Assembly: GCA_016699425.1 (NCBI GenBank) | Contig: CP064975.1 | Span: 258,979-322,978 of the forward strand | DNA: 64,000 bases | Direction of reading: 5' to 3' | Origin: Candidatus Moraniibacteriota bacterium | GTDB lineage: Bacteria > Patescibacteriota > Minisyncoccia > Moranbacterales > UBA1568 | Shown here: positions 2,988 to 24,883 of the stretch, in pieces | Layout of the letters: every line of letters begins with the position of its first letter | Numbering within the stretch: position 1 is the first letter of the stretch | The notes under the pieces: generated by a model | What the model saw: only the letters and a program-made list of their open reading frames with translations | Told to the model about the DNA's origin: nothing | The model's database searches: none | Position numbers and translations under genes: made by a program

Positions 2988-3345
2988 GAGAGAACGGAAA
3001 GGATTTTAGGGTCACTACTCTGACCTGCCGAATGCCCCTCGCCACGCTTGGCAGAGGGGTTATTTCTTGGTAAGCGAGCAGTACCTTTCCTGTGGTGCAG
3101 CCAAAAGAAACCTTTCTCGCTCGTCCCTGTTTTCAAGTTTTTGAGACGCTTCGAAAGCCTCAGAGAGGTGCTATACTTGAGGCGTTATTGAACTTTTCAA
3201 TGGGGCAGAAAGTGTTCCAAATCAAAAAATATGAACATTGTAAACGCTGATAAGAGCCCTGACAGAAGAAGCATTTTTTAAACGATTATAAGTAAATAAA
3301 ACTACGGAAAAGCTTGAAACAGGGCCAGAAAGATTTGGGCGAAAT

Positions 3346-4122
3346 GTGGTCGTAACGGATCACTATCTACGACATGCAGAAAAAGGCAAGGGGCGCATGG
3401 GCGGCGACCTCAGCGCTGCAGGAGAAGGAGCCGCTGCTGCTGTGGGCCACACCCTCTCCGAACAGGATGTTATTAAAGCCTATACGGGCACCGTGCCGCG
3501 CACGAAAGATACAGCTCAATTAATTGTGGGGGCGTCACCAACGGAAAGGAAGCTCGTCCCTCGTATCCGCCAGTCTTTGGATGGGTTTGCTGGCTTCTTC
3601 GTTGACCCTCAGAAATCTCCTCTCTGGCAAAAACTTCTAGATGATTTGGCTCATATTCCGAGGGACCTTCCTCCTGACGAACAAAAAAAGGAAATTGCCA
3701 GAATCGGCGAAGAATTTACGACTCAATGGATTGCCTTTGAAGATAAACGTCCTGATGAAGGAACCTTGTCTCCACTTGAGGTGGCGTTAAACATGGCTAA
3801 GAGTACCGTCACTCACAGCAAAATGGCAGAGAGGCTGAAGAGTGGCACCAAAAACGAACTTATCAACGTCACGCATGAAGGGATGCTCACGGCAATGCTT
3901 CGCTACTTCCTCAGGCGAAAAAATGAGGACGGAACCTATACAGAAGGTAAAGAACTCTTAGAGAAGCTTGGGCCAGTACAATATCTGGATGATATTATTA
4001 TCCGAACAGCCACTGACGCCCAAGGAAAACGAACGAGTACGGCCACTTTTCGAGGAGAAGAGTATGTAGTGACTGGAGAAGAGCTTCTTGCTCACCATAA
4101 GGATTCACAAACTTCCTCTTAA
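3346..4122 (+). CDS. Histidine phosphatase superfamily-like protein (phosphoglycerate-mutase-like fold)
   Basis: An LRHAEKG motif resembles the RHG catalytic motif, and a later VTHEGML resembles the second His motif. It lies in a low-GC island and is tightly linked (12-nt gap) to the next gene. Confidence 0.4.
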   Translation: MVVTDHYLRHAEKGKGRMGGDLSAAGEGAAAAVGHTLSEQDVIKAYTGTVPRTKDTAQLIVGASPTERKLVPRIRQSLDGFAGFFVDPQKSPLWQKLLDDLAHIPRDLPPDEQKKEIARIGEEFTTQWIAFEDKRPDEGTLSPLEVALNMAKSTVTHSKMAERLKSGTKNELINVTHEGMLTAMLRYFLRRKNEDGTYTEGKELLEKLGPVQYLDDIIIRTATDAQGKRTSTATFRGEEYVVTGEELLAHHKDSQTSS

Positions 4123-4133
4123 GATATCTGAGT

Positions 4134-5450
4134 ATGCTTCCGGTTGAACAATACCGTAAAACCGTCCGCCGACCATACCCACCCCTGCAGAGTTTTCTTT
4201 TTTTAAAAGGTTTTGCAAAAGCTGATTACTATAAACCTTTTTTTAATGAACCATATGCTCTCACGGAAATAATAGTGACTGGTGATGCCTGGTACTGCTC
4301 TGACCAGCAGCTTGATCACATCGGAGAGCTCACCATGAAAGCTTGGGACACGCCGGAAGGTCTCGCAAAAGTAAAAGAGTTATTTTTTGAACGCGAAAGA
4401 AAACTCCTCGCGACAAAAGACCTTGTGAGTTTTGGTTTGGCCTTTGAAGAATATCAGCCGGCCGTACTGATGATTTCTTACTCTGAGAAAACACTGGATA
4501 TTCACCTTAGGACTTTATTGAAAGAAAAAATTAACCACGTCAAAGTGGAGCAAATCATGAGCGATCTAAATAGCCCCCTGGAGGATAACTTTTATAAAAA
4601 AGAGGAGTTGGATCTCGTCACCTCCTTGAACCTTTCTCATCACGTGAAAAAGTATGCTGGTTTGAATGCTAGATATGGTTCCGAAAAAGTATATACCTTA
4701 GATGAGGCCCAAAAACGTCTCCAAGGTCTTGATAAGAAAAAGTGGATTAAAAACTATCACAGAGAAAAAGAGGAACTTAAGAAAAGAATTTTGGAAATCA
4801 AATTACTCTTGGGTAATGCGGATGCTCATTGGGTAGATGTAGTCCAGTACAGCGTGTATTACCGGACGCAAAGGGCAGACGTGCTCCATTTGTCTACTTT
4901 TAATATGCTTGGCGAATTGAAAAAAGAAGCTAAAAGAGCCAACCTTTCTTATCCTGAAATTTTACAGTGTTCCGTGGACGAAATTATCAACCGTCGCCTT
5001 CCTTCGAGGACGGAGATAAGAAACCGTCAACGAGCTAATGGTTTCGTATTAGAGAAAGGGCAGATCCAGATTGTCACAGGAAAAGAGTACGAGAGAATAC
5101 GCGACTACTTTCCGACAAGTATCAAAGAGAGGAGACTCCTGACGGGGAACACTGCTTATAAAGGACAGGTGAAGGGACCAGTCTGCGTCGTATACTCACT
5201 TCAGGATTACGAGAAGTTTCGAGAGGGCGATGTTTTGGTAGCCGCCATGACTACGCCGGATATGGTCCCTTTAGTAAAAATGGCTTCGGCTGTTGTCACG
5301 GATGAAGGAGGAATTACTTGTCATGCCGCTATTATTGCCCGCGAACTTAAAAAACCTTGTATCATCGGTACCAAAGACGCTACGGCGATTCTGAAGGATA
5401 CTATGGTCGTAGAAGTGGATGCTACGGCGGGTACGGTAAGAGTTCTTTAA
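4134..5450 (+). CDS. Protein with a C-terminal PEP-utilising-enzyme mobile (phospho-His swivel) domain and an unrecognised ~350-aa N-terminal region
   Basis: The C-terminus reads TTPDMVPLVKMASAVVTDEGGITCHAAIIARELKKPCIIGT, matching the phosphohistidine domain of PpsA/PPDK/rifampin phosphotransferase. No ATP-grasp or PEP-binding TIM barrel is recognisable upstream. Confidence 0.6.
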   Translation: MLPVEQYRKTVRRPYPPLQSFLFLKGFAKADYYKPFFNEPYALTEIIVTGDAWYCSDQQLDHIGELTMKAWDTPEGLAKVKELFFERERKLLATKDLVSFGLAFEEYQPAVLMISYSEKTLDIHLRTLLKEKINHVKVEQIMSDLNSPLEDNFYKKEELDLVTSLNLSHHVKKYAGLNARYGSEKVYTLDEAQKRLQGLDKKKWIKNYHREKEELKKRILEIKLLLGNADAHWVDVVQYSVYYRTQRADVLHLSTFNMLGELKKEAKRANLSYPEILQCSVDEIINRRLPSRTEIRNRQRANGFVLEKGQIQIVTGKEYERIRDYFPTSIKERRLLTGNTAYKGQVKGPVCVVYSLQDYEKFREGDVLVAAMTTPDMVPLVKMASAVVTDEGGITCHAAIIARELKKPCIIGTKDATAILKDTMVVEVDATAGTVRVL

Positions 5451-5484
5451 CACACCCCCTTCTTGTACAAGTTGTTTCATAAAT

Positions 5485-6114
5485 TTATTTCTGATTCTGC
5501 AAAGCCAGCTTAATACCAAACGCAACAAGAGCCACTCCCATTATTTTAGAGAGGTAGTACTGCACCTTCGAAAACTTATTACGGACAAGGGGTGCAGAAA
5601 TAATAAATGCAAGGAGAGAAAACCAGATTCCTACAATAAAAGCAATTTCTATGCCGTACATTCCCTGTACAATCAGTGGTGTTTTTACATCAATGACTTG
5701 AGTGAAAATGCTCAGAAAAAAGAGAGTGGCTTTTGGATTGAGAGCATTTGTGATAAAACCTTCTTTTAGAGCTTGAGATAGAGAGATGTTCCCATCTCCT
5801 TTTTCTACGGAAATCTCTTTGAAACTTTCTTTTTTTGTTCTTACCAATTGAATACCAAGATACAATAAGTAAGCAGCTCCAACATATTTAATGATAGAAA
5901 ATAGAATAATGGACTGAGAAATAATAAGGCCAATCCCCAAAAGTGAATAAGCTACATGTACGAGTATCCCTAGCCCTACACCTAAGGCTGTCATGAGTCC
6001 AATCTTACGGGCATTCAGACTGTTCTTTGCTACCACAATAAAGTCTGGCCCTGGGCTTACAGCAGCCAAAAAGGCGATAATTCCTATTGTAATAGCTGGG
6101 AAAAAATACTCCAT
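5485..6114 (-). CDS. LysE/RhtB family amino-acid exporter
   Basis: 209 aa with six TM helices. The N-terminal IGIIAFLAAVSPGPDF motif is typical of LysE-type translocators. The gene is AT-rich relative to the core. Confidence 0.75.
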   Translation of the reverse strand: MEYFFPAITIGIIAFLAAVSPGPDFIVVAKNSLNARKIGLMTALGVGLGILVHVAYSLLGIGLIISQSIILFSIIKYVGAAYLLYLGIQLVRTKKESFKEISVEKGDGNISLSQALKEGFITNALNPKATLFFLSIFTQVIDVKTPLIVQGMYGIEIAFIVGIWFSLLAFIISAPLVRNKFSKVQYYLSKIMGVALVAFGIKLALQNQK

Positions 6115-6288
6115 ATATTACATATTTTAACATAAACTAAAAAACATCTTCCAGTGGCTTTAAATTGATTTTGCCCTACAAAGCATAGAGGTCATCCAAT
6201 ATAGAAACTTCTTGATAAAAGTCCTGAACCCCTGATTTTCCTTTTAGATAAAACAAAAACAGCCTCCGAAGAGACTGATTTCTTTCCT

Positions 6289-6472
6289 TGGCGGGGACGG
6301 CAGGACTCGGTCAGAGATAATTTACTCGCCGTCGCATATGAATTTTCCCGACCCTGACTCACGGCCTCGTCTACTGACTCGGCAGCGTTCCGTCTTTCTC
6401 ATCCCGACGGAAACCAAGCCCGCCTGCAACGGTGTAGCACTTCGGGCAGGCAGTTGGTTTCCTCTCGCCCCC
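6289..6472 (-). ncRNA. Putative ~185-nt structured small RNA with tRNA-Asp-like terminal segments, bounded by intrinsic terminators
   Basis: The minus-strand unit starts GGGGGCGAGAGGAAACC and ends GAGTCCTGCCGTCCCCGCCA, which are the same acceptor-strand sequences as tRNA-Asp. There is no T-arm. The interior has extended pairing (GGAAACCAA...TTGGTTTCC). Hairpin+T-run terminators sit immediately upstream (6484-6518) and downstream (6251-6277). Confidence 0.3.
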
Positions 6473-6483
6473 ACTATAGAACA

Positions 6484-6518
6484 AAAATCTCTCCCCCAAC
6501 AGGAGGAGAGATTTTGTT
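6484..6518. terminator. Bidirectional rho-independent terminator hairpin
   Basis: AAAAATCTCTCCCCCAACAGGAGGAGAGATTTTGTT has a perfect 8-bp GC-rich stem with T-runs on both strands. Confidence 0.6.
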
Positions 6519-6623
6519 ATGGCGGGGACGGCGGGACTTACCCCTCCGGGGCATAAACTTCTCGTCCCACCATCGTACCAAAAAATCAAAAACCCGACCG
6601 TAAAGGACGGGCTTTTGATTTTG

Positions 6624-6697
6624 CGGGGACGGCGGGACTCGAACCCGTGACCTTCTGCGTGACAGGCAGACGCTCTAACCAGCTGAGCTACGCCCCC
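6624..6697 (-). tRNA. tRNA-Asp (GTC)
   Basis: GGGGGCGTAGCTCAGCTGGTTAGAGCGTCTGCCTGTCACGCAGAAGGTCACGGGTTCGAGTCCCGCCGTCCCCG folds as a cloverleaf with anticodon loop CTGTCAC and discriminator G. It closely resembles E. coli tRNA-Asp. CCA is not encoded. Confidence 0.85.
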
Positions 6698-6862
6698 ATT
6701 TTCTGAACTCACGACCTACAACCGACAACTCACAACGAGAAGAAATGTATTAAAGCATCGCTCACCGTTGTTGGTTGTTCGTGCTGGGTTATCAGTTTTT
6801 TTGGTACCAGGGGCGAGATTCGAACTCGCGACCCCGGGCTTACTCGCCCCGTACCGAAACAG

Positions 6863-6935
6863 TAGCAGGGGTGGGGATCGAACCCACGACATCAGGCTTA
6901 TGAGTCCTGTGCTCTACCAACTGAGCTACCCTGCC
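6863..6935 (-). tRNA. tRNA with CAT anticodon (elongator Met or Ile2/lysidine type)
   Basis: GGCAGGGTAGCTCAGTTGGTAGAGCACAGGACTCATAAGCCTGATGTCGTGGGTTCGATCCCCACCCCTGCTA forms a standard cloverleaf with anticodon loop CTCATAA and a G1-U72 wobble. Confidence 0.75.
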
Positions 6936-7159
6936 GGAAATGTTTTGGTACGGGGCGAATCCCGCTGCTCCCTGCCTGCCGGCAGGCAGGTAACCAACTG
7001 AGCCCCGCCCGCATGATTCGCTTGCTCATCAAGCGTATCGGGCGGGTACCCTGGCGAGGTTTATACGATGAAACCCTGACCGCGTCGCAAGGCACGGAAA
7101 TAAAGCGAGGAGCGGGGAAGATGCCACAGTATCTGTCACCTGCTGATGGCTATATTTGT

Positions 7160-7233
7160 TGCGGGGGGTGGATTTGAACCACCGACCTCTTGGTTATGAG
7201 CCAAGCGAGCTGCCAGACTGCTCTACCCCGCTG
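7160..7233 (-). tRNA. Initiator tRNA-fMet (CAT)
   Basis: AGCGGGGTAGAGCAGTCTGGCAGCTCGCTTGGCTCATAACCAAGAGGTCGGTGGTTCAAATCCACCCCCCGCAA is near-identical in layout to E. coli tRNA-fMet. Position 1 is unpaired against A72 and the T-loop is TTCAAAT. Confidence 0.8.
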
Positions 7234-7496
7234 TATATGATCTCTAGGAACTTCCGACCACCCTTTAAACTTTTGAGATAGTTTTCCCTCTTTCGCGCTT
7301 CGGTGTAACTCGCATAGTCTTCTTTGTGAACGAGTACCCATTGTTGGTGTCTCTTGGTCCACTGGGAGCGACCCTGATTGTGAGCAGTAATCCTCTCCGT
7401 AACGTCAGCGGAGATACCGATGTACCTGCGCCCATTTTCGGATTGTATTACATAAACGCTGAACGGTAAACTCGTGTCGAGCATAGGGAGTCTCAT
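7194..7496 (-). CDS. Small GIY-YIG nuclease (YhbQ/UPF0213-like) inserted at tRNA-fMet
   Basis: MRLPMLDTSLPFSVYVIQSENGRRYIGISADVTERITAHNQGRSQWTKRH...TEARKRENYLKS carries the GIY..YIG and conserved Arg/Glu motifs. The start ATG lies in a CTCATGAG anticodon-loop mimic of a degenerate tRNA-fMet 5'-half copy (7513-7537). The stop TAA is the TAA of the CTCATAA anticodon loop of the intact tRNA-fMet. The track ORF 7194..7673 is an artefactual upstream extension. Confidence 0.7.
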   Translation of the reverse strand: MRLPMLDTSLPFSVYVIQSENGRRYIGISADVTERITAHNQGRSQWTKRHQQWVLVHKEDYASYTEARKRENYLKSLKGGRKFLEIIYSGVEQSGSSLGS

Positions 7497-7637
7497 GAGC
7501 CAATCCCGCCCGGGCGGGACAGACTGCTCTACCCCGCTGTATATTTGAGAACCTATAACCCACCACCCACAACCTACGACGAGACCTACTTTCTTCTTGC
7601 TGTCGGTTGTTAGTCGTGAGTTGTCGGTTATCTCAAG

Positions 7638-8957: not shown

Positions 8958-9652
8958 TCCTTTCTTCCATGCCCGTCTGGATCCAGCATATCGAAATCGG
9001 CATCCGCGAGTTGGCACCTATCGTTCCGCTCGAACTTTTCATTTCTGTGGGTGCCTTTGCCGAGGAAATCATCGCGCCTATTCCTTCGATGCTCGTGACG
9101 ACGACGGCGGGATTCTTTGCTCAGGTAGAAGGTCGCACGGTGCTCTTCGTGTTGTGGCTCGCCATCCTGGGTGGTCTGGGTAAACTCGCTGGATCGTATA
9201 TCTACTATCTGATCGGCGATAAGCTCGAAGATGTCGTTGTTGGACGCTATGGCCGATACTTGGGACTTGGTCATGCTGATATCGAACGGATTGGTCAGCG
9301 TTTCACTGGTCATCACTGGCGAGATGGAGGACTCATATTTGTACTTCGTCTCATTCCGTTTGTGCCAACTATTCTGGTTTCGATCTCGTGTGGCGTCGTG
9401 CGGATAGAGAAGCGTGTATTTCTTTTCGCTTCCTATGCTGGAAATTTTTGCAAGGACCTCTTCTATATCTCCATCGGTTACTACGGAATCCGAGCGCTCA
9501 AGGTTTATCTCATGGATATCGAGCGGGTGCGTTTCGGTGTTGGAGTCGTCTCGACGATAGTGGTCATCGGCAGCCTCATCTTTCTGTACATCCATCGTCA
9601 CCACGGAGTACGCTTTTTCGGATACTTGTGGAAGCGTTTTGGGAGAAAGTAG
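8954..9652 (+). CDS. DedA/SNARE-associated (VTT domain) family membrane protein
   Basis: YLIGDKLEDVVVGRYGRYLGL...IERIGQRF...HWRDGGLIFVLRLIPFVP is the DedA family pattern with multiple TM helices. The long antisense ORF 8777..9700 is a shadow. Confidence 0.7.
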   Translation: MILSSMPVWIQHIEIGIRELAPIVPLELFISVGAFAEEIIAPIPSMLVTTTAGFFAQVEGRTVLFVLWLAILGGLGKLAGSYIYYLIGDKLEDVVVGRYGRYLGLGHADIERIGQRFTGHHWRDGGLIFVLRLIPFVPTILVSISCGVVRIEKRVFLFASYAGNFCKDLFYISIGYYGIRALKVYLMDIERVRFGVGVVSTIVVIGSLIFLYIHRHHGVRFFGYLWKRFGRK

Positions 9653-10031
9653 CTCGGATGCATTCTTTAAAAAAAACGGACCCAGGGAGCGGCGGCTCAC
9701 GAGGGTCCTGCGGGCGGCGGGCTAATTTGCGTGGCGCCGATGGTGTCGCGCTCGGGAATGGGCTTGGGTCGATTCAGTCCCATTGAATCACGATGGGACT
9801 ATCATTTTCCATCTGGTGGCTTCGTTGGTGAGGGCCGGAATGGTCCTGGTCAAGCTCACACAATAATGCCACTCTGAGTCGCGCTAGATCAGCTCCCGCT
9901 GAATTTCTTGTGTACATGGCAATACCGATCGGTTGGGCCAAGAACCAATCTATGCACCGTCGTCTGGAACTGACGATGTCTCCCGAAATGGGTACGAATC
10001 CTAACCGATTTGATCCCCAGAGTACCCGAGC

Positions 10032-11234
10032 GATACCGTTACCTTTTCAGTTGATGGAAAGTGTTGTTCTTGTTAGACTAGAGCCTCAAACCGGCTGTAA
10101 AGTTGACTTTAAGCCTTAAATTTCATTCAGCATGTCAAAAAAAATGGTCACGTCACTGTCCCCGCTGCAGCAGTCGTGAGACGGTGAAGAATGGCTCCCA
10201 AGGCTACAGCCATCACTACCTGTGTCGTGCTTGTGAACATTCTTTTCTCGTTACTTCGGGCATGATCCGAGACTGCTGTGGATCGAGCATATTGATGGGG
10301 TACCGTTTCGTAAATTAGGAGATGAATATGGTCTCTCGGGAAAACAAGCCTTCGTGAGAGTTACAAGAGAATTAGCACAACTTCCTTCCAATGACGCTCT
10401 GACGCAAACCCTCTGTGACCCGAGACGCTTCTCGGGCATCCTTGTCATGGATGGGAAGTATGTGGCGGTCAAAGGCTTTGCGAGAAAGATTCCTTTTCTC
10501 TACGGCATTGATTACTTGACCCACGATATTCCTTCGGGGCTTTGTATACAGCGGAAGATGAGGTGTCCTTCTCACGTTTCTTCCATCAAGTGAAGCAACT
10601 TGGCTATGATCTTCAGATCGTGGTCGCCGATGACCGCTCTGGCCTGAAAAAGGCTCTCCTGAAGGTTTTTCCGTCGGCTCGGCTGCAGCTCTGCCACAAC
10701 CACTACCTGGAGAATATCCGGGTGGCTTTACGGGTGCGGAGTGAAGAGCGATACCGGCCCTTCTTTTACGCTCTCAAGGAGAGCGTGTTTGGAGAACGAG
10801 AGGATGTGACGAACGCCATTCGATCTTTTGCCGCGAGCATCAAGAGAGAGAAACGTCTGCTCAAAAACATCGTAAGTGAGATAGCGTACCGGCAGGAGGA
10901 ACTCTTCAATTACTTGCTGCTGCCAGGCTGTCCCAACAACACCAATCTCATTGAACTCTACAATTCCCATCTCAATGGGAGGCTGAAGACGATCAAGGGT
11001 TTTCAGAGTTTTGCTTCGGCTCAGTGTTGGTTGAATGCGTGGATGATACGGAGGAGAACCAAGCCTTTTACAGATTGTGAAGCTAAATTTAAATATTTGA
11101 ACGGTTACCCTTCACTCTCTTTGAGTATCAAAAAACAGGCTCGCTGGCCTGAGACATTAGTAAAACTAGGCGTAGAAGCAGTAAAACTTTTTGAAAAAAA
11201 GCGCCCTACTATCAACTGAAAAGGTAACGGTAAC
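10032..11234 (+). mobile_element. IS1-family insertion sequence (~1.2 kb) with 22-bp terminal inverted repeats and a 9-bp target-site duplication
   Basis: IRL G(A)TACCGTTACCTTTTCAGTTG at 10032-10053 matches the reverse complement of 11213-11234 with one mismatch. The direct repeat TACCCGAGC lies immediately outside both ends (10023-10031 and 11235-11243). The internal ORFs encode a zinc finger (HCPRC...CRACEH), MDGKYVAVKG...FLYGIDYLTHD, and NTNLIELYN..L.GRLK, which are the IS1 InsA/InsB signatures. Confidence 0.75.
10103..11219 (+). pseudogene. IS1-family transposase (insA/insB) split over three reading frames
   Basis: ORFs 10103-10318, 10354-10593 and 10542-11219 are each shifted by -1 relative to the previous one. 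One shift may be the programmed InsAB' frameshift; the second implies inactivation or a sequence error. An A8 run at 10136-10143 is a candidate slippery site. Confidence 0.6.
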
Positions 11235-11473
11235 TACCCGAGCCTCTCGTTTCAGATCATGAAAGCCCTTGAGAATGAGCCCGTGGTTTCCGGGGTGGTC
11301 GCGTGGACCGCAGCAGAAACAGAAGATCGTCCCTGAAGCGGTTGTCAAAATACCGATCCTGCCACAAACCGTGAGAGGGGTAGCGCTGCTGAGATCCATG
11401 AGATAGCTCCTTGGTATATTGGCGTGTTTGCCAATATGTGATAAAATCATTTAATTCTCACTCTGTCAACTTC

Positions 11474-13534
11474 ATGTCAACCTTCGTGCTTACATCCGAT
11501 TGGCCGCCCGCTGGGGACCAGCCCAAAGCGATTGCTTCACTCGTCGCTGGTCTTAAACGTGGGGATGATTTCCAGACGCTTTTCGGCGTGACCGGATCGG
11601 GGAAGACGTTCACTATGGCAAATGCGATTGCACAGATTGGCCGCCCGACACTCGTCATCGCGCACAATAAAACACTCGCTGCCCAGCTCGCCCAGGAGTT
11701 CGAAGAGTTTTTCCCCGATGCGGCGGTGCATTACTTTGTCTCGTACTATGACTACTACCAGCCCGAGGCGTACATGCCGATCACGGATACGTATATTGAG
11801 AAGGACGCTTCGATCAATGAAGAGATCGACCGCTTGCGCCACGCGTCGACACAGTCACTCCTGACTCGTCGTGACGTCATTATCGTCGCCAGTGTCTCCT
11901 GTATTTACGGCCTCGGGAGTCCGGAAGAATATCTGCACGAGAACATCCTCCTGACCGTAGGTGAAGTTATCACCCGTGAAACACTCCTTCGTCGGCTTAT
12001 CGCGATTTTCTTCGAGCGTACCAATGCTGACATCACGCCGGGCCACTTCCGTTCCATCGGCAATCGCATCGAGGTGATGCCGGTATCCGAGAAGTTTATC
12101 TATTCTATTGAGCTGGGTGCCAATCGGATTGAGTCGATCACACAGATTGATCCCGTTTCACAGACGATTCTCCGAGAGGAGGAAGCGATCACTCTTTTTC
12201 CGACCAAACACTTCATCACGGATGCTGACAAGAAGGAGCAGGCCTTGCTCACGATCCGAGAGGAGCTCACGACGCAACTCGGCATATTTGCGGCGGAGGG
12301 GAAACTGCTTGAGGCCGAACGGTTGAAGCGCCGGACGCACTATGATATCGCCATGATCGATGAGATCGGCTACTGTTCGGGGATCGAGAACTATTCGCGG
12401 CACCTCTCTGGCAAGGCACCGGGTGAGCCACCCGAGACCTTGCTCTCGTACTTCCCGCACCTTCCTGATGGCACGCCGGACTTCCTCACCATCATCGATG
12501 AGTCGCATGTGACGCTGCCGCAGCTTCGCGGTATGTACAATGGTGACCAGGCGCGCAAGAAGACGCTCGTCAACTTTGGTTTCCGATTACCGAGTGCTCT
12601 CGACAATAGGCCACTTCGGTATGAAGAATTCCAGGAACGGGTGGGCTCCATCGTCTTCACCTCGGCAACCCCAGCCGATTACGAGCGCGAAGTGAGTACT
12701 CAGATTGTCGAGCAGGTGATCCGACCGACGGGTCTCTTGGACCCTGAAGTCACGGTCCGCGGCATCCGAGCGATTGGCGAATACCCGGGGCAGATCGGGG
12801 ACTTCATCCGCGAGACGGAGATGGAGGTGAAGCGTGGCGGCCGAGTGATCGCGACGACCCTGACGAAAAAAATGGCTGAGGATCTCGCCCAGTACCTGAA
12901 AGACCCTTCGACACGCTCAGGGCAGGGAAAGCCAATCAAAGCCGAATACCTCCACAGTGACGTGCTCACCATCGATCGGATCAAGATCTTGACCCAGTTC
13001 CGGAAGGGCGAGTTCGATGTCCTGGTCGGTGTGAACTTGCTCCGCGAAGGACTTGATCTTCCCGAGGTGACCTTTATTGGCATCCTCGATGCGGATAAGG
13101 AGGGGTTTCTCCGTTCCGAAACCTCGCTCATCCAGATTATCGGCCGCGCCGCGCGCAATGTCCTTGGCCGTGTCATCCTCTATGCTGACCGGGTGACGGG
13201 TTCGATCGACTATGCCCTGAGCGAGACGGCTCGTCGCCGGGCCTTGCAACTGGCGTACAATACCGAGCACAGTATCACGCCGCAGACGATAAAGAAGAAC
13301 ATTCATGATATCACGGAGCGGCTGCAGAGCGAGCACGATCAGGCGGTAGCCGTATCGCTCGCGCTCGATGCCAAAGGTTTTGCCAAGGATCCAGAAAAAA
13401 TCATCCGAGCGAAGGAACGCGAGATGAAAGCGGCCGTGAAGCTTCTCGATTTCGAGACCGCGGCCATCCTGCGCGATGAGATCCGGGCGCTCGAGAAACG
13501 TCTCGGCCGAAGGAATAAGGAGACTCGGAAATGA
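11474..13534 (+). CDS. uvrB: Excinuclease ABC subunit B
   Basis: GVTGSGKTFTMANAIAQIGRPTLVIAHNKTLAAQLAQEF, YYDYYQPEAY, helicase motifs and a C-terminal UVR domain are present across ~686 aa. Confidence 0.95.
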   Translation: MSTFVLTSDWPPAGDQPKAIASLVAGLKRGDDFQTLFGVTGSGKTFTMANAIAQIGRPTLVIAHNKTLAAQLAQEFEEFFPDAAVHYFVSYYDYYQPEAYMPITDTYIEKDASINEEIDRLRHASTQSLLTRRDVIIVASVSCIYGLGSPEEYLHENILLTVGEVITRETLLRRLIAIFFERTNADITPGHFRSIGNRIEVMPVSEKFIYSIELGANRIESITQIDPVSQTILREEEAITLFPTKHFITDADKKEQALLTIREELTTQLGIFAAEGKLLEAERLKRRTHYDIAMIDEIGYCSGIENYSRHLSGKAPGEPPETLLSYFPHLPDGTPDFLTIIDESHVTLPQLRGMYNGDQARKKTLVNFGFRLPSALDNRPLRYEEFQERVGSIVFTSATPADYEREVSTQIVEQVIRPTGLLDPEVTVRGIRAIGEYPGQIGDFIRETEMEVKRGGRVIATTLTKKMAEDLAQYLKDPSTRSGQGKPIKAEYLHSDVLTIDRIKILTQFRKGEFDVLVGVNLLREGLDLPEVTFIGILDADKEGFLRSETSLIQIIGRAARNVLGRVILYADRVTGSIDYALSETARRRALQLAYNTEHSITPQTIKKNIHDITERLQSEHDQAVAVSLALDAKGFAKDPEKIIRAKEREMKAAVKLLDFETAAILRDEIRALEKRLGRRNKETRK

Positions 13535-15519: not shown

Positions 15520-15918
15520 GTGGGGGGGTGGTATACTGGGGTCATGACACAGCGTTCACTCATCATCGCTAGTCTCGCCGTCGCCGCTATCATCGTGGTT
15601 GTGGGGTGTTTTTGGTTGGCTGGGAGGGACGACGGTGCCTCAATTTCCGATCGGTCGGATCAGTCATCGGCATCTCCTTCAGGGAATTCCGTTCAGTCGA
15701 CGAACATGGCATCCCAGAGCCTGGACGCGGGTGACGATTCCCGCGCGGCAGCCGATTCGAATGAGAGCATCGAAACGCTCATGGTGGAGATCGAACAGAA
15801 TGCGGCTGGGGACGATACGGCCATGGAGGCTGAAGTGGCGGGCGAGAGCGAGAGCTTTACGGAAGGGGCCGTTGTGATGGAACAACTTGGCCAAAGCTAT
15901 GATGAAACCGAATACTAA
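15520..15918 (+). CDS. Hypothetical membrane-anchored acidic protein
   Basis: A TM helix (LIIASLAVAAIIVVVGCFWLAG) is followed by a Ser/Asp/Glu-rich region. Confidence 0.35.
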   Translation: MGGWYTGVMTQRSLIIASLAVAAIIVVVGCFWLAGRDDGASISDRSDQSSASPSGNSVQSTNMASQSLDAGDDSRAAADSNESIETLMVEIEQNAAGDDTAMEAEVAGESESFTEGAVVMEQLGQSYDETEY

Positions 15919-24709: not shown

Positions 24710-24883
24710 GGAAAAAGAAAGCTCCCGGACCTATCCCTTGCGGGAAAGCGGCGATGAACGCCACAGTTTGGTTCGGGAGCACTTCCACCTATAAAATACG
24801 CTTTGCAGACCGTTTTGTCAACACTGAGTCAGCACTGATGTGGCAGTAAGTGAGCAGTCCAGAGTGGGCTAAAAAATTTGGCT

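Follow-up and report, generated by a model that had tools for sequence, protein, structure and literature searches.

The tRNA-linked repeats (TLRs) of Escherichia coli K-12 were reportedly the subject of earlier works by Egan and Landy (1978) and Rudd (1999). According to Stenum et al. (2021, PMC8144298), the class numbers 22 units, which are spread over ten loci within tRNA and rRNA operons, and its hallmark is that the 3' 18 to 19 bp of a unit are identical to the upstream tRNA or 5S gene (PMC8144298). Found in E. coli in 1978, TLRs have no known function, and an early claim that rtT is involved in the stringent response has since been retracted (PMC8144298). The rrA, rrB, and rrF repeats are flanked by terminators T1 and T2, and their transcription occurs by T1 read-through; for the RrB repeat, it was suggested that RNase E cleavage involves recognition similar to that of the 5S 3' end (PMC8144298). 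The mode of action of rttR was stated as unknown (bioRxiv 10.1101/2024.07.17.603846). In the literature that we searched, discussion of TLRs is confined to E. coli and other Enterobacterales. Here we analyze a tRNA locus of a Candidatus Moraniibacteriota bacterium (contig CP064975.1, positions 258,979 to 322,978; this stretch of 64,000 nucleotides is called the window, and positions are given within it), in which the trailer of the tRNA operon probably carries an array of TLR-like units.

The tRNA array of the window runs Ala-Ile-iMet-Met-Asp (iMet, initiator-type tRNA-Met), with a short and a long unit at its end, 43 nt and 150 nt downstream of tRNA-Asp, respectively. The last 18 nt of tRNA-Asp, GAGTCCCGCCGTCCCCGC, span the T-loop to the discriminator. 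The corresponding pattern, GAGTCCYGCCGTCCCCGC, matches the minus strand at 6623-6640 (tRNA-Asp itself), at 6522-6539 (AAGTCC..., one mismatch), and at 6291-6308 (no mismatches), where 0.12 chance matches are expected; the observed number was reached in 0 of 100 shuffles. Copies 2 and 3 are extended by CA to give GCCA; the tRNA-Asp gene itself reads GCAAAA, so that its CCA is not encoded. The sequence-only reading of the window had pointed to these two downstream recurrences, to a terminator-bounded unit of about 185 nt starting with GGGGGCG, and to a low-GC island next to the array. Pattern search and shuffles bear out the three copies, the unit measures 184 nt (6289-6472) between hairpins at 6515-6484 and 6277-6260, and the drop in GC is real; the stretch 3069-6288 is absent from the same-species locus L004 (L-numbers denote loci of other genomes). 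What had been read as a degenerate copy of the anticodon stem before the first repeat, GGACGAGAAG, turned out to be the junction typical of the family, in which GAGAA comes right after a strand that pairs to the tRNA-end copy.

Both units follow one design: the end is a copy of the last 17 to 19 nt of tRNA-Asp, and the start is a strand that base-pairs with that copy and runs directly into GAYGAGAA. The 3' identity to tRNA-Asp is 17/17 in the short unit (A58-C74) and 18/19 in the long unit (C56-C74), whose GGGGGCG start is identical to the 5' acceptor strand of tRNA-Asp. The minimum-energy fold of the long unit pairs its ends (-77.7 kcal/mol, z -3.05), and none of 200 shuffled sequences was equally stable. 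Helix P1 is formed by the 5' end and the acceptor 3' strand of the tRNA-end copy (position 3 is mismatched in most units), and helix P2 by CGGGAY and the T-stem 3' strand plus two T-loop nucleotides. The 5' strand of P2 is followed by an invariant GAGAA, hairpin B/C, hairpin D with an invariant loop (GCGACGGC), CGA, and the tRNA-end copy. In the modeled fold, P1 reproduces the cognate acceptor stem and P2 its T-stem; a single hairpin takes the place of the D and anticodon arms, and two hairpins stand where the T-loop would be. A further helix might form between GACG of loop D and the CGUC just before P2, a pairing beyond the reach of covariation because both are invariant. Table 1 lists the parts of both units along with the other features of the locus.

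Homologous loci were collected from relatives by synteny with UvrB, and a second Moranbacteria clade (clade 2) was reached through a metagenome match, L021, and its ABC-transporter gene, which gave a comparative set of seven Asp units and three to four Met units. Homologues of the long unit lie directly behind tRNA-Asp in L004, L011/L012, L022, L021, L029, and L034. A covariance model, R1, gave 143.6 bits on the window unit and 132 to 171 bits in six other genomes; L029 and L034, which were outside its training set of four units, scored about 133 bits. In the alignment of the seven Asp units from both clades, 97.4% of the pair cells hold standard pairs, as against 29 to 50% when the partners are slid by one to three columns. 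Both sides have changed in 23 of the 50 pairs, and the observed values were reached by 0 of 500 shuffles. With 26 G-U cells versus 4 A-C cells, the fold can be assigned to the tRNA-sense strand.

The 5' strand of P1 tracks the local tRNA-Asp acceptor: it is GGGGGCG/CGTCCCC in the window and GGTCCGG/CCGGTCC in L021, and L021, L029, and L034 all have a different tRNA-Asp acceptor (…CCGGTCC) and a unit strand to match. Hairpin A varies in length, with compensatory changes. In the window, its apical loop holds a 32-nt GC-rich palindromic insertion that the L022 unit, otherwise 95% identical, lacks; related palindromes are found elsewhere in the tRNA array (repeats D9/I10). The non-tRNA interior of the Asp unit, about 130 nt, is conserved in two clades with fixed spacings. 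A comparison of the window with L012 gave 89% identity for the unit and 69 to 78% for coding DNA, and most intergenic spacers of the array are unalignable. As judged by these comparisons, the long unit is a conserved, folded RNA element. In wider searches, a metagenome scan with a three-block pattern returned one match, the highly informative L021, and a viral scan with the same pattern returned none, a phage blastn match was limited to the tRNA-Asp part, and exact-protein look-ups of the window LysE and of a 136-amino-acid (aa) open reading frame (ORF) found no record. The lone match from scanning a genome collection with a two-anchor pattern lies inside a high-GC coding region and was discarded as chance.

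Units of the same design also occur behind tRNA-iMet. In L021, L029, and L034, shorter units of 94 to 113 nt end in the tRNA-iMet 3' end; hairpin A is present, and GUGGGAU, paired to the tRNA-end copy, is followed by GAGAA(G/C). Three clade-2 species retain both the Asp and the Met type. The short unit of the window is a still shorter form of the family, with a counterpart in L005. There is a single unit per locus in L012, L022, L004, L029, and L034, two are present in the window, and L021 has 1.4 tandem copies. That design, covariation, and versions for two tRNAs coincide suggests that the design is selected and general and not a local accident.

The E. coli units known as RtT provided a direct comparison. 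The tyrT-tyrV-tpr/rttR region contains four Rfam RtT units, each ending in the last 19 nt of tRNA-Tyr. Their 5' strands (three starting with GGGGAAGGAT, one with GGGGAAGGGT) are followed by GAGAAG or GAGAAC and form 10 bp with the tRNA-end copy. On rrnB, the 5S repeat between T1 and T2 was checked and is present. A mechanical search for the outer helix followed by GAUGAGAA recovered 4/4 RtT units, the long and the short window unit, the Asp units of L012, L022, and L034, and both Met units; it gave a 6-bp tie in L021 and L029 and shorter or imperfect helices in L004 and L005. On the L029 Met unit, the RtT model came out on top of 4227 Rfam families in the same register (21.2 bits, E 0.029), and it gave 15 bits on the L021 Met unit; both scores of these sister units fall short of the RtT gathering score of 45 bits. 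Shared words (AGCGAG, CGUUGCC, and CCCGRAGGG) had suggested interior homology to RtT, which was rejected when the alignment scores proved to be at shuffle level.

Table 1. Features of the tRNA array, the TLR-like units, and the adjoining island (positions in the window)
Feature	Position	Strand	Basis or remark
tRNA-Ala	7956-7881	-	ARAGORN and Rfam
tRNA-Ile	7711-7637	-	ARAGORN and Rfam
Initiator-type tRNA-Met (iMet)	7232-7158	-	ARAGORN and Rfam
tRNA-Met	6935-6862	-	ARAGORN and Rfam
tRNA-Asp (GTC)	6623-6697	-	ARAGORN; Rfam tRNA 67 bits; last 18 nt (6623-6640) are copy 1
Terminator-like hairpin directly 3' of tRNA-Asp (AAAATCAAAAGCCCG...CGGGTTTTTGATTTT)	6582-6622	-	18-nt inverted repeat I5
Short TLR-like unit, 60 nt, ends GCCA	6520-6579	-	Fold -29.5 kcal/mol, z -3.35; mechanical helix search
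Short unit, 5' strand GATGGTGGGAC	6574-6564	-	11 bp with copy 2 (GTCCCGCCGTC within 6537-6520)
Short unit, junction GAGAAG	6563-6558	-	
Short unit, small hairpin CCCCGGAGGGG	6551-6541	-	
Terminator-like hairpin between short and long unit	6484-6515	-	14-bp stem and T-run
Long TLR-like unit, 184 nt, starts GGGGGCG	6289-6472	-	Consensus fold; covariance model R1 143.6 bits
Long unit, P1 5' strand	6472-6466	-	
Long unit, hairpin A	6462-6409	-	
32-nt GC-rich palindromic insertion (GCCTGCCCGAAG...GCAGGCGG) in hairpin A apical loop	6420-6451	-	Window-specific
Long unit, P2 5' strand CGGGAT	6406-6401	-	
Long unit, junction GAGAA	6400-6396	-	
Long unit, hairpin B/C	6394-6356	-	
Long unit, hairpin D	6353-6309	-	Loop GCGACGGC at 6335-6328
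Copy 3 of tRNA-Asp end inside long unit	6291-6308	-	
Long unit, P2 3' strand GTCCTG	6306-6301	-	
Long unit, P1 3' strand CGTCCCC	6299-6293	-	
Long unit, tail GCCA	6292-6289	-	
Terminator-like hairpin with T-run 3' of long unit	6260-6277	-	
Low-GC strain-specific island adjoining repeat array	3069-6288		GC profile, Pfam

On balance, we think it likely that TLR-like units form an array at this locus, in the trailer of a tRNA operon of Moranbacteria. Several observations weigh against this assignment. The seven Asp sequences form three tight groups, which makes for a modest number of independent covariation events. No unit is present in the close relatives L009/L010, L019/L020, and L027/L028, and the unit is therefore dispensable. 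No conserved promoter was seen for the units, a terminator-like hairpin stands between tRNA and unit in the window, L022, L012, and L029, and CCA is encoded in only some units. The acceptor-like helix of the Met units is weak, with 3 bp in the minimum-energy fold (six standard pairs and one non-standard pair when fitted to the model). As for the link to E. coli, the RtT model has no match to the long or short window unit at E values up to 10, model R1 fails to detect RtT (12 bits), and the RtT and Asp-unit interiors align at chance level (z -1.3 to +1.1; global alignment, dinucleotide shuffles), so that kinship with the E. coli units rests on three things: the shared design, one marginal model score, and the junction motif, which is 5 to 8 nt long and occurs at a fixed place.

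If the locus is such an array, the units would be transcribed together with the tRNA operon, which would need read-through of the intervening terminators, as in E. coli rrA, rrB, and rrF. They may then be cut out by tRNA-maturing enzymes because the closing helices and the 3' tail copy the acceptor/T-stem stack. The released RNA could mimic the 3' half of the cognate tRNA and titrate a factor that binds it, which is the weakest step of the scheme. At the DNA level, the repeated tRNA ends might serve as substrates for recombination, which would create differences in copy number and modules and make the tRNA flank a hot spot.

The alternative with the most in its favor, which we nevertheless regard as unlikely, is that the tRNA ends are attL/attR-type repeats left by serial integration and partial deletion, with a tyrosine integrase crossing over in the T-loop and the units being functionless arm DNA. 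Integrases that target the T-loop leave an identity block from the T-loop to the tRNA 3' end, and the block here has just this extent. Variation between strains also fits. Relative to L022, the arrangement in the window differs by a clean 101-nt insert, which has an 18-nt direct repeat at its borders and contains a tRNA end without CCA, a terminator, and a short-unit body. Down to 6582, the array of the window shares 99% identity with that of L004, as against only 73 to 76% for their units. L004 and L005 carry a terminator and a gene cassette of 123 to 141 aa at the same junction (...A/GTCC) as the window, which brings the kinds of cargo at one junction in these three loci to three, and in L029 the tRNA end and its terminator are repeated jointly. 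Furthermore, the units are patchy in clade 1, their similarity is incongruent with that of their hosts, and a strain-specific island adjoins the array.

Against this, the segments between the repeats are just 101 and 231 nt long, and neither they nor their surroundings contain the enzyme. No integrase or site-specific recombinase family was found among the window neighbors (Pfam: His_Phos_1, PEP-utilizers, LysE, GIY-YIG, VTT_dom), and the gene tables of about ten loci list no integrase, only insertion sequence (IS) transposases (rve), in L004 and L030/L031. The IS256-like transposase of the window is about 3.6 kb away, outside the repeat-bounded segments. No repeat copy occurs below 6289 at up to three mismatches, and the far edge of the island, also read directly, is without one; other weak matches, at 9100-9115 and 15570-15587, are far from the island. 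Arm DNA, moreover, would show neither compensatory changes in 23 of 50 pairs nor a G-U strand bias, three clade-2 species keep both unit types, and E. coli has the same design behind 5S rRNA and many tRNAs (PMC8144298). The sequence-only reading had proposed serial integration and excision at the tRNA end, with a tRNA-derived small RNA as the alternative. The former is borne out as far as clean insertions and replacements at the repeats between strains are concerned, and the absence of the enzyme, the small size of the inserts, and the missing far-edge repeat speak against it; the latter, given compensatory changes in seven genomes and the TLR hallmark, comes closer to the evidence. Rfam names no family for 6289-6472, and the relatives show conservation of the unit alongside variable insertion; neither of the two outcomes named in that reading as refuting it, a known housekeeping RNA or conserved spacer sequence with no variable insertion, is thus clearly given.

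Several observations concern the island and nearby mobile elements. Window GC is 0.36 to 0.49 from about 3000 to 6250 and 0.50 to 0.58 on either side. The island encodes a histidine-phosphatase family protein, a phosphoenolpyruvate (PEP)-utilizing mobile domain, and LysE (Pfam), has no homology in L004, L005, L012, or L022, and adjoins the array without demonstrably belonging to the element. Near its far edge, at 3112-3128 (minus strand), GGGACGAGCGAGAAAGG resembles the TLR junction motif; it has no counterpart in L004 or L005 and may be chance or a remnant. The IS256-like transposase ORFs (10103-11219, plus strand) lie in a 1.2-kb insertion relative to L004 (10032-11234) with a junction overlap of about 9 bp, and one end of the same IS is found at the start of the L004 contig. 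In L030/L031, an rve-type transposase gene (9970-10773, plus strand) is found at the site that in L029 is taken up by tRNA-Met, tRNA-Asp, and the unit; L030/L031 carry the same ABC-transporter protein as L029.

We give a low probability to the possibility that the units have no role in trans and act only in cis, as a structure in the 3' external transcribed spacer by which 3' maturation or termination of the operon is guided or buffered. A second copy of a processing site and competition for the tRNA 3' half during folding are examples of how this might work, and they share that low probability. The unit is invariably found in the trailer of the cognate tRNA, the upstream tRNA end and its own copy are both possible partners of its 5' strands, and the proposal made for the RrB repeat, 5S-like recognition leading to RNase E cleavage (PMC8144298), points the same way. 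However, co-transcription is uncertain where a terminator intervenes, and close relatives mature the same tRNA-Asp without the unit. Least probable is that the array is neutral debris without function of its own, made of partial tRNA duplications from illegitimate recombination or from repair after GIY-YIG cleavage: tRNA fragments do abound in the array (a 25-nt iMet 5' duplicate, a broken tRNA-Met, 75-nt copies in L005), but the interior of about 130 nt is kept in two clades with fixed spacings and compensatory changes, the unit is better conserved than neighboring coding DNA, and the insertion tolerated by the window unit sits exactly in an apical loop.

Other RNA identities were also considered. 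Rfam has no family for either unit at gathering or lenient thresholds. Transfer-messenger RNA (tmRNA) was rejected because ARAGORN was negative and there is no conserved tag frame; the AUG of the lone short ORF is ACG in most homologues, and candidate tag frames are therefore unconserved. A tpr-like ORF was dismissed as well, its AUG occurring in the window only. The units are not a tRNA with introns or a decayed tRNA-Asp copy, as there is no D or anticodon arm and both ARAGORN and the Rfam tRNA model (RF00005) were negative; tRNA mimicry is limited to the acceptor and T-stem strands. GAUGAG resembles the hammerhead core CUGAUGA, but by eye the C3/U4 equivalents and the conserved GAAA are missing, and no Rfam ribozyme matched, nor did the Rfam models of signal recognition particle RNA and 6S RNA. 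YrlA was excluded since permutation is not seen in the window unit and the YrlA model gave it no score. Two IMG/VR phage contigs, L002 (871-960, plus strand) and L003 (4863-4934, minus strand), contain the exact 20-mer GAGTCCTGCCGTCCCCGCCA of the window unit 3' end within a permuted, YrlA-like RNA (RF02553, 41 bits); the match is probably a coincidence of tRNA-Asp-like sequence.

Regarding the surroundings, UvrB (11411-13534) shares 99% identity with a protein from a metagenome-assembled genome of Candidatus Moraniibacteriota, and all close UvrB matches are from Moranbacteria or Patescibacteria. The hairpin directly 3' of tRNA-Asp aligns to the terminator portion of an Rfam leader model, and the hairpin between the two units is the one found upstream of the unit in L022. 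A GIY-YIG ORF (Pfam PF01541) is situated inside the tRNA array in the window (7194-7544, minus strand), L019 (8010-8300), L027 (2086-2331), and L029 (5735-5990). In the window, an exact duplicate of 25 nt from the iMet 5' end stands before the ORF, with the D-arm replaced by the palindrome TCCCGCCCGGGCGGGA, and L019 has the same layout with a tRNA-Asp 5' duplicate; the ORF looks like a free-standing homing-nuclease cassette targeting tRNA genes. The ancestral elongator tRNA-Met, intact in L009, L019, and L022, is broken up in the window (6795-7050, minus strand) in the order GCCAGGGTA, GC hairpin, CTCAGTTGGTTA, hairpin, a different complete tRNA-Met (6935-6862), and the old 3' half ending GGTACCA. 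This inner tRNA-Met is bracketed by an 18-nt inverted repeat (6844-6861 / 6941-6958). In L005 (2880-3100, minus strand), two 75-nt copies lie in tandem behind the elongator tRNA-Met; each consists of a 16-nt spacer and three-quarters of the tRNA from its 3' side, and the spacer is complementary to sequence upstream of the elongator tRNA-Met gene. GC-rich palindromes of the form CCYGCC(C)G...CGGGCRGG recur in loops of the unit and of tRNA fragments (6420-6451, 6971-6990, about 7015-7060, and 7505-7520; minus strand) and may represent a miniature insertion element. A 40-nt CAAC-rich inverted repeat (6706-6745 / 7590-7629; 70 to 91% complementary, 844 nt apart) brackets the GIY-YIG-iMet-Met block and may form a long-range processing stem. 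Outside the locus, a DUF3800-IX RNA (Rfam RF02968) scored 50 bits, over its gathering score, at 24717-24780 (minus strand).

If our favored assignment is correct, the TLR design exists in a bacterium of the Candidate Phyla Radiation (CPR), outside the Enterobacterales to which the literature searched restricts it. The conserved loops, fixed spacings, and retargeted pairing strands are comparative material bearing on what these RNAs bind and how they arise. The locus also warns annotators that repeated tRNA ends beside islands are not necessarily integrase att sites. It is tempting to go further and to imagine TLR-like units as a widespread, reprogrammable class, not restricted to enterobacteria, which have one scaffold (pairing strand, GAYGAGAA junction, hairpins) with guide strands rewritten for each tRNA (Tyr, Asp, iMet, and also 5S) and which spread by structure- or RNA-templated insertion at T-loop positions 56-58, that is, as a non-autonomous mobile RNA gene riding on tRNA processing; we consider this a long shot.

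Among known systems, the att repeats of integrative elements that target tRNA genes, with tandem accretion of degenerate elements, share with the locus the direct repeats of a tRNA 3' segment beginning in the T-loop, the serial arrays, the variable cargo, and the adjoining island. The units differ from them in having no integrase, inserts of only 101 to 231 nt, RNA-type structure, and no repeat at the far side of the island. The tRNA-like RNAs, tmRNA and YrlA (RF02553), have in common with the units a closing helix resembling an acceptor stem and a tail of discriminator and (C)CA; unlike them, the unit has no T-loop or D-loop and no tag frame, and its order is not permuted. Closer is RtT (RF00391), with an outer helix of 5' strand and tRNA-end copy followed by GA(U/C)GAGAA, an interior of comparable length (85 nt versus 85 to 88 nt), and a tRNA-like 3' tail, although RtT pairs 10 contiguous nucleotides and the long Asp unit pairs in two blocks (P1 and P2). 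With regard to TLRs as a class, the window units stem from CPR/Moranbacteria and are linked to Asp and iMet tRNAs, hairpin A splits the 5' pairing strand of the Asp unit, and the interior is unalignable to the E. coli units. On the other hand, at seven loci the units lie in the operon trailer directly behind a stable-RNA gene, as in E. coli; the last 17 to 19 nt of the Asp and iMet units are identical to the 3' end of the upstream gene; there are one to several units per locus (one to five in E. coli, often in tandem); and terminator-like hairpins flank the window unit as T1 and T2 flank rrB. The window feature thus falls outside the RtT sequence family while displaying the hallmark that defines TLRs, and we file it as a TLR-like element that represents a new sequence family in a new phylum.

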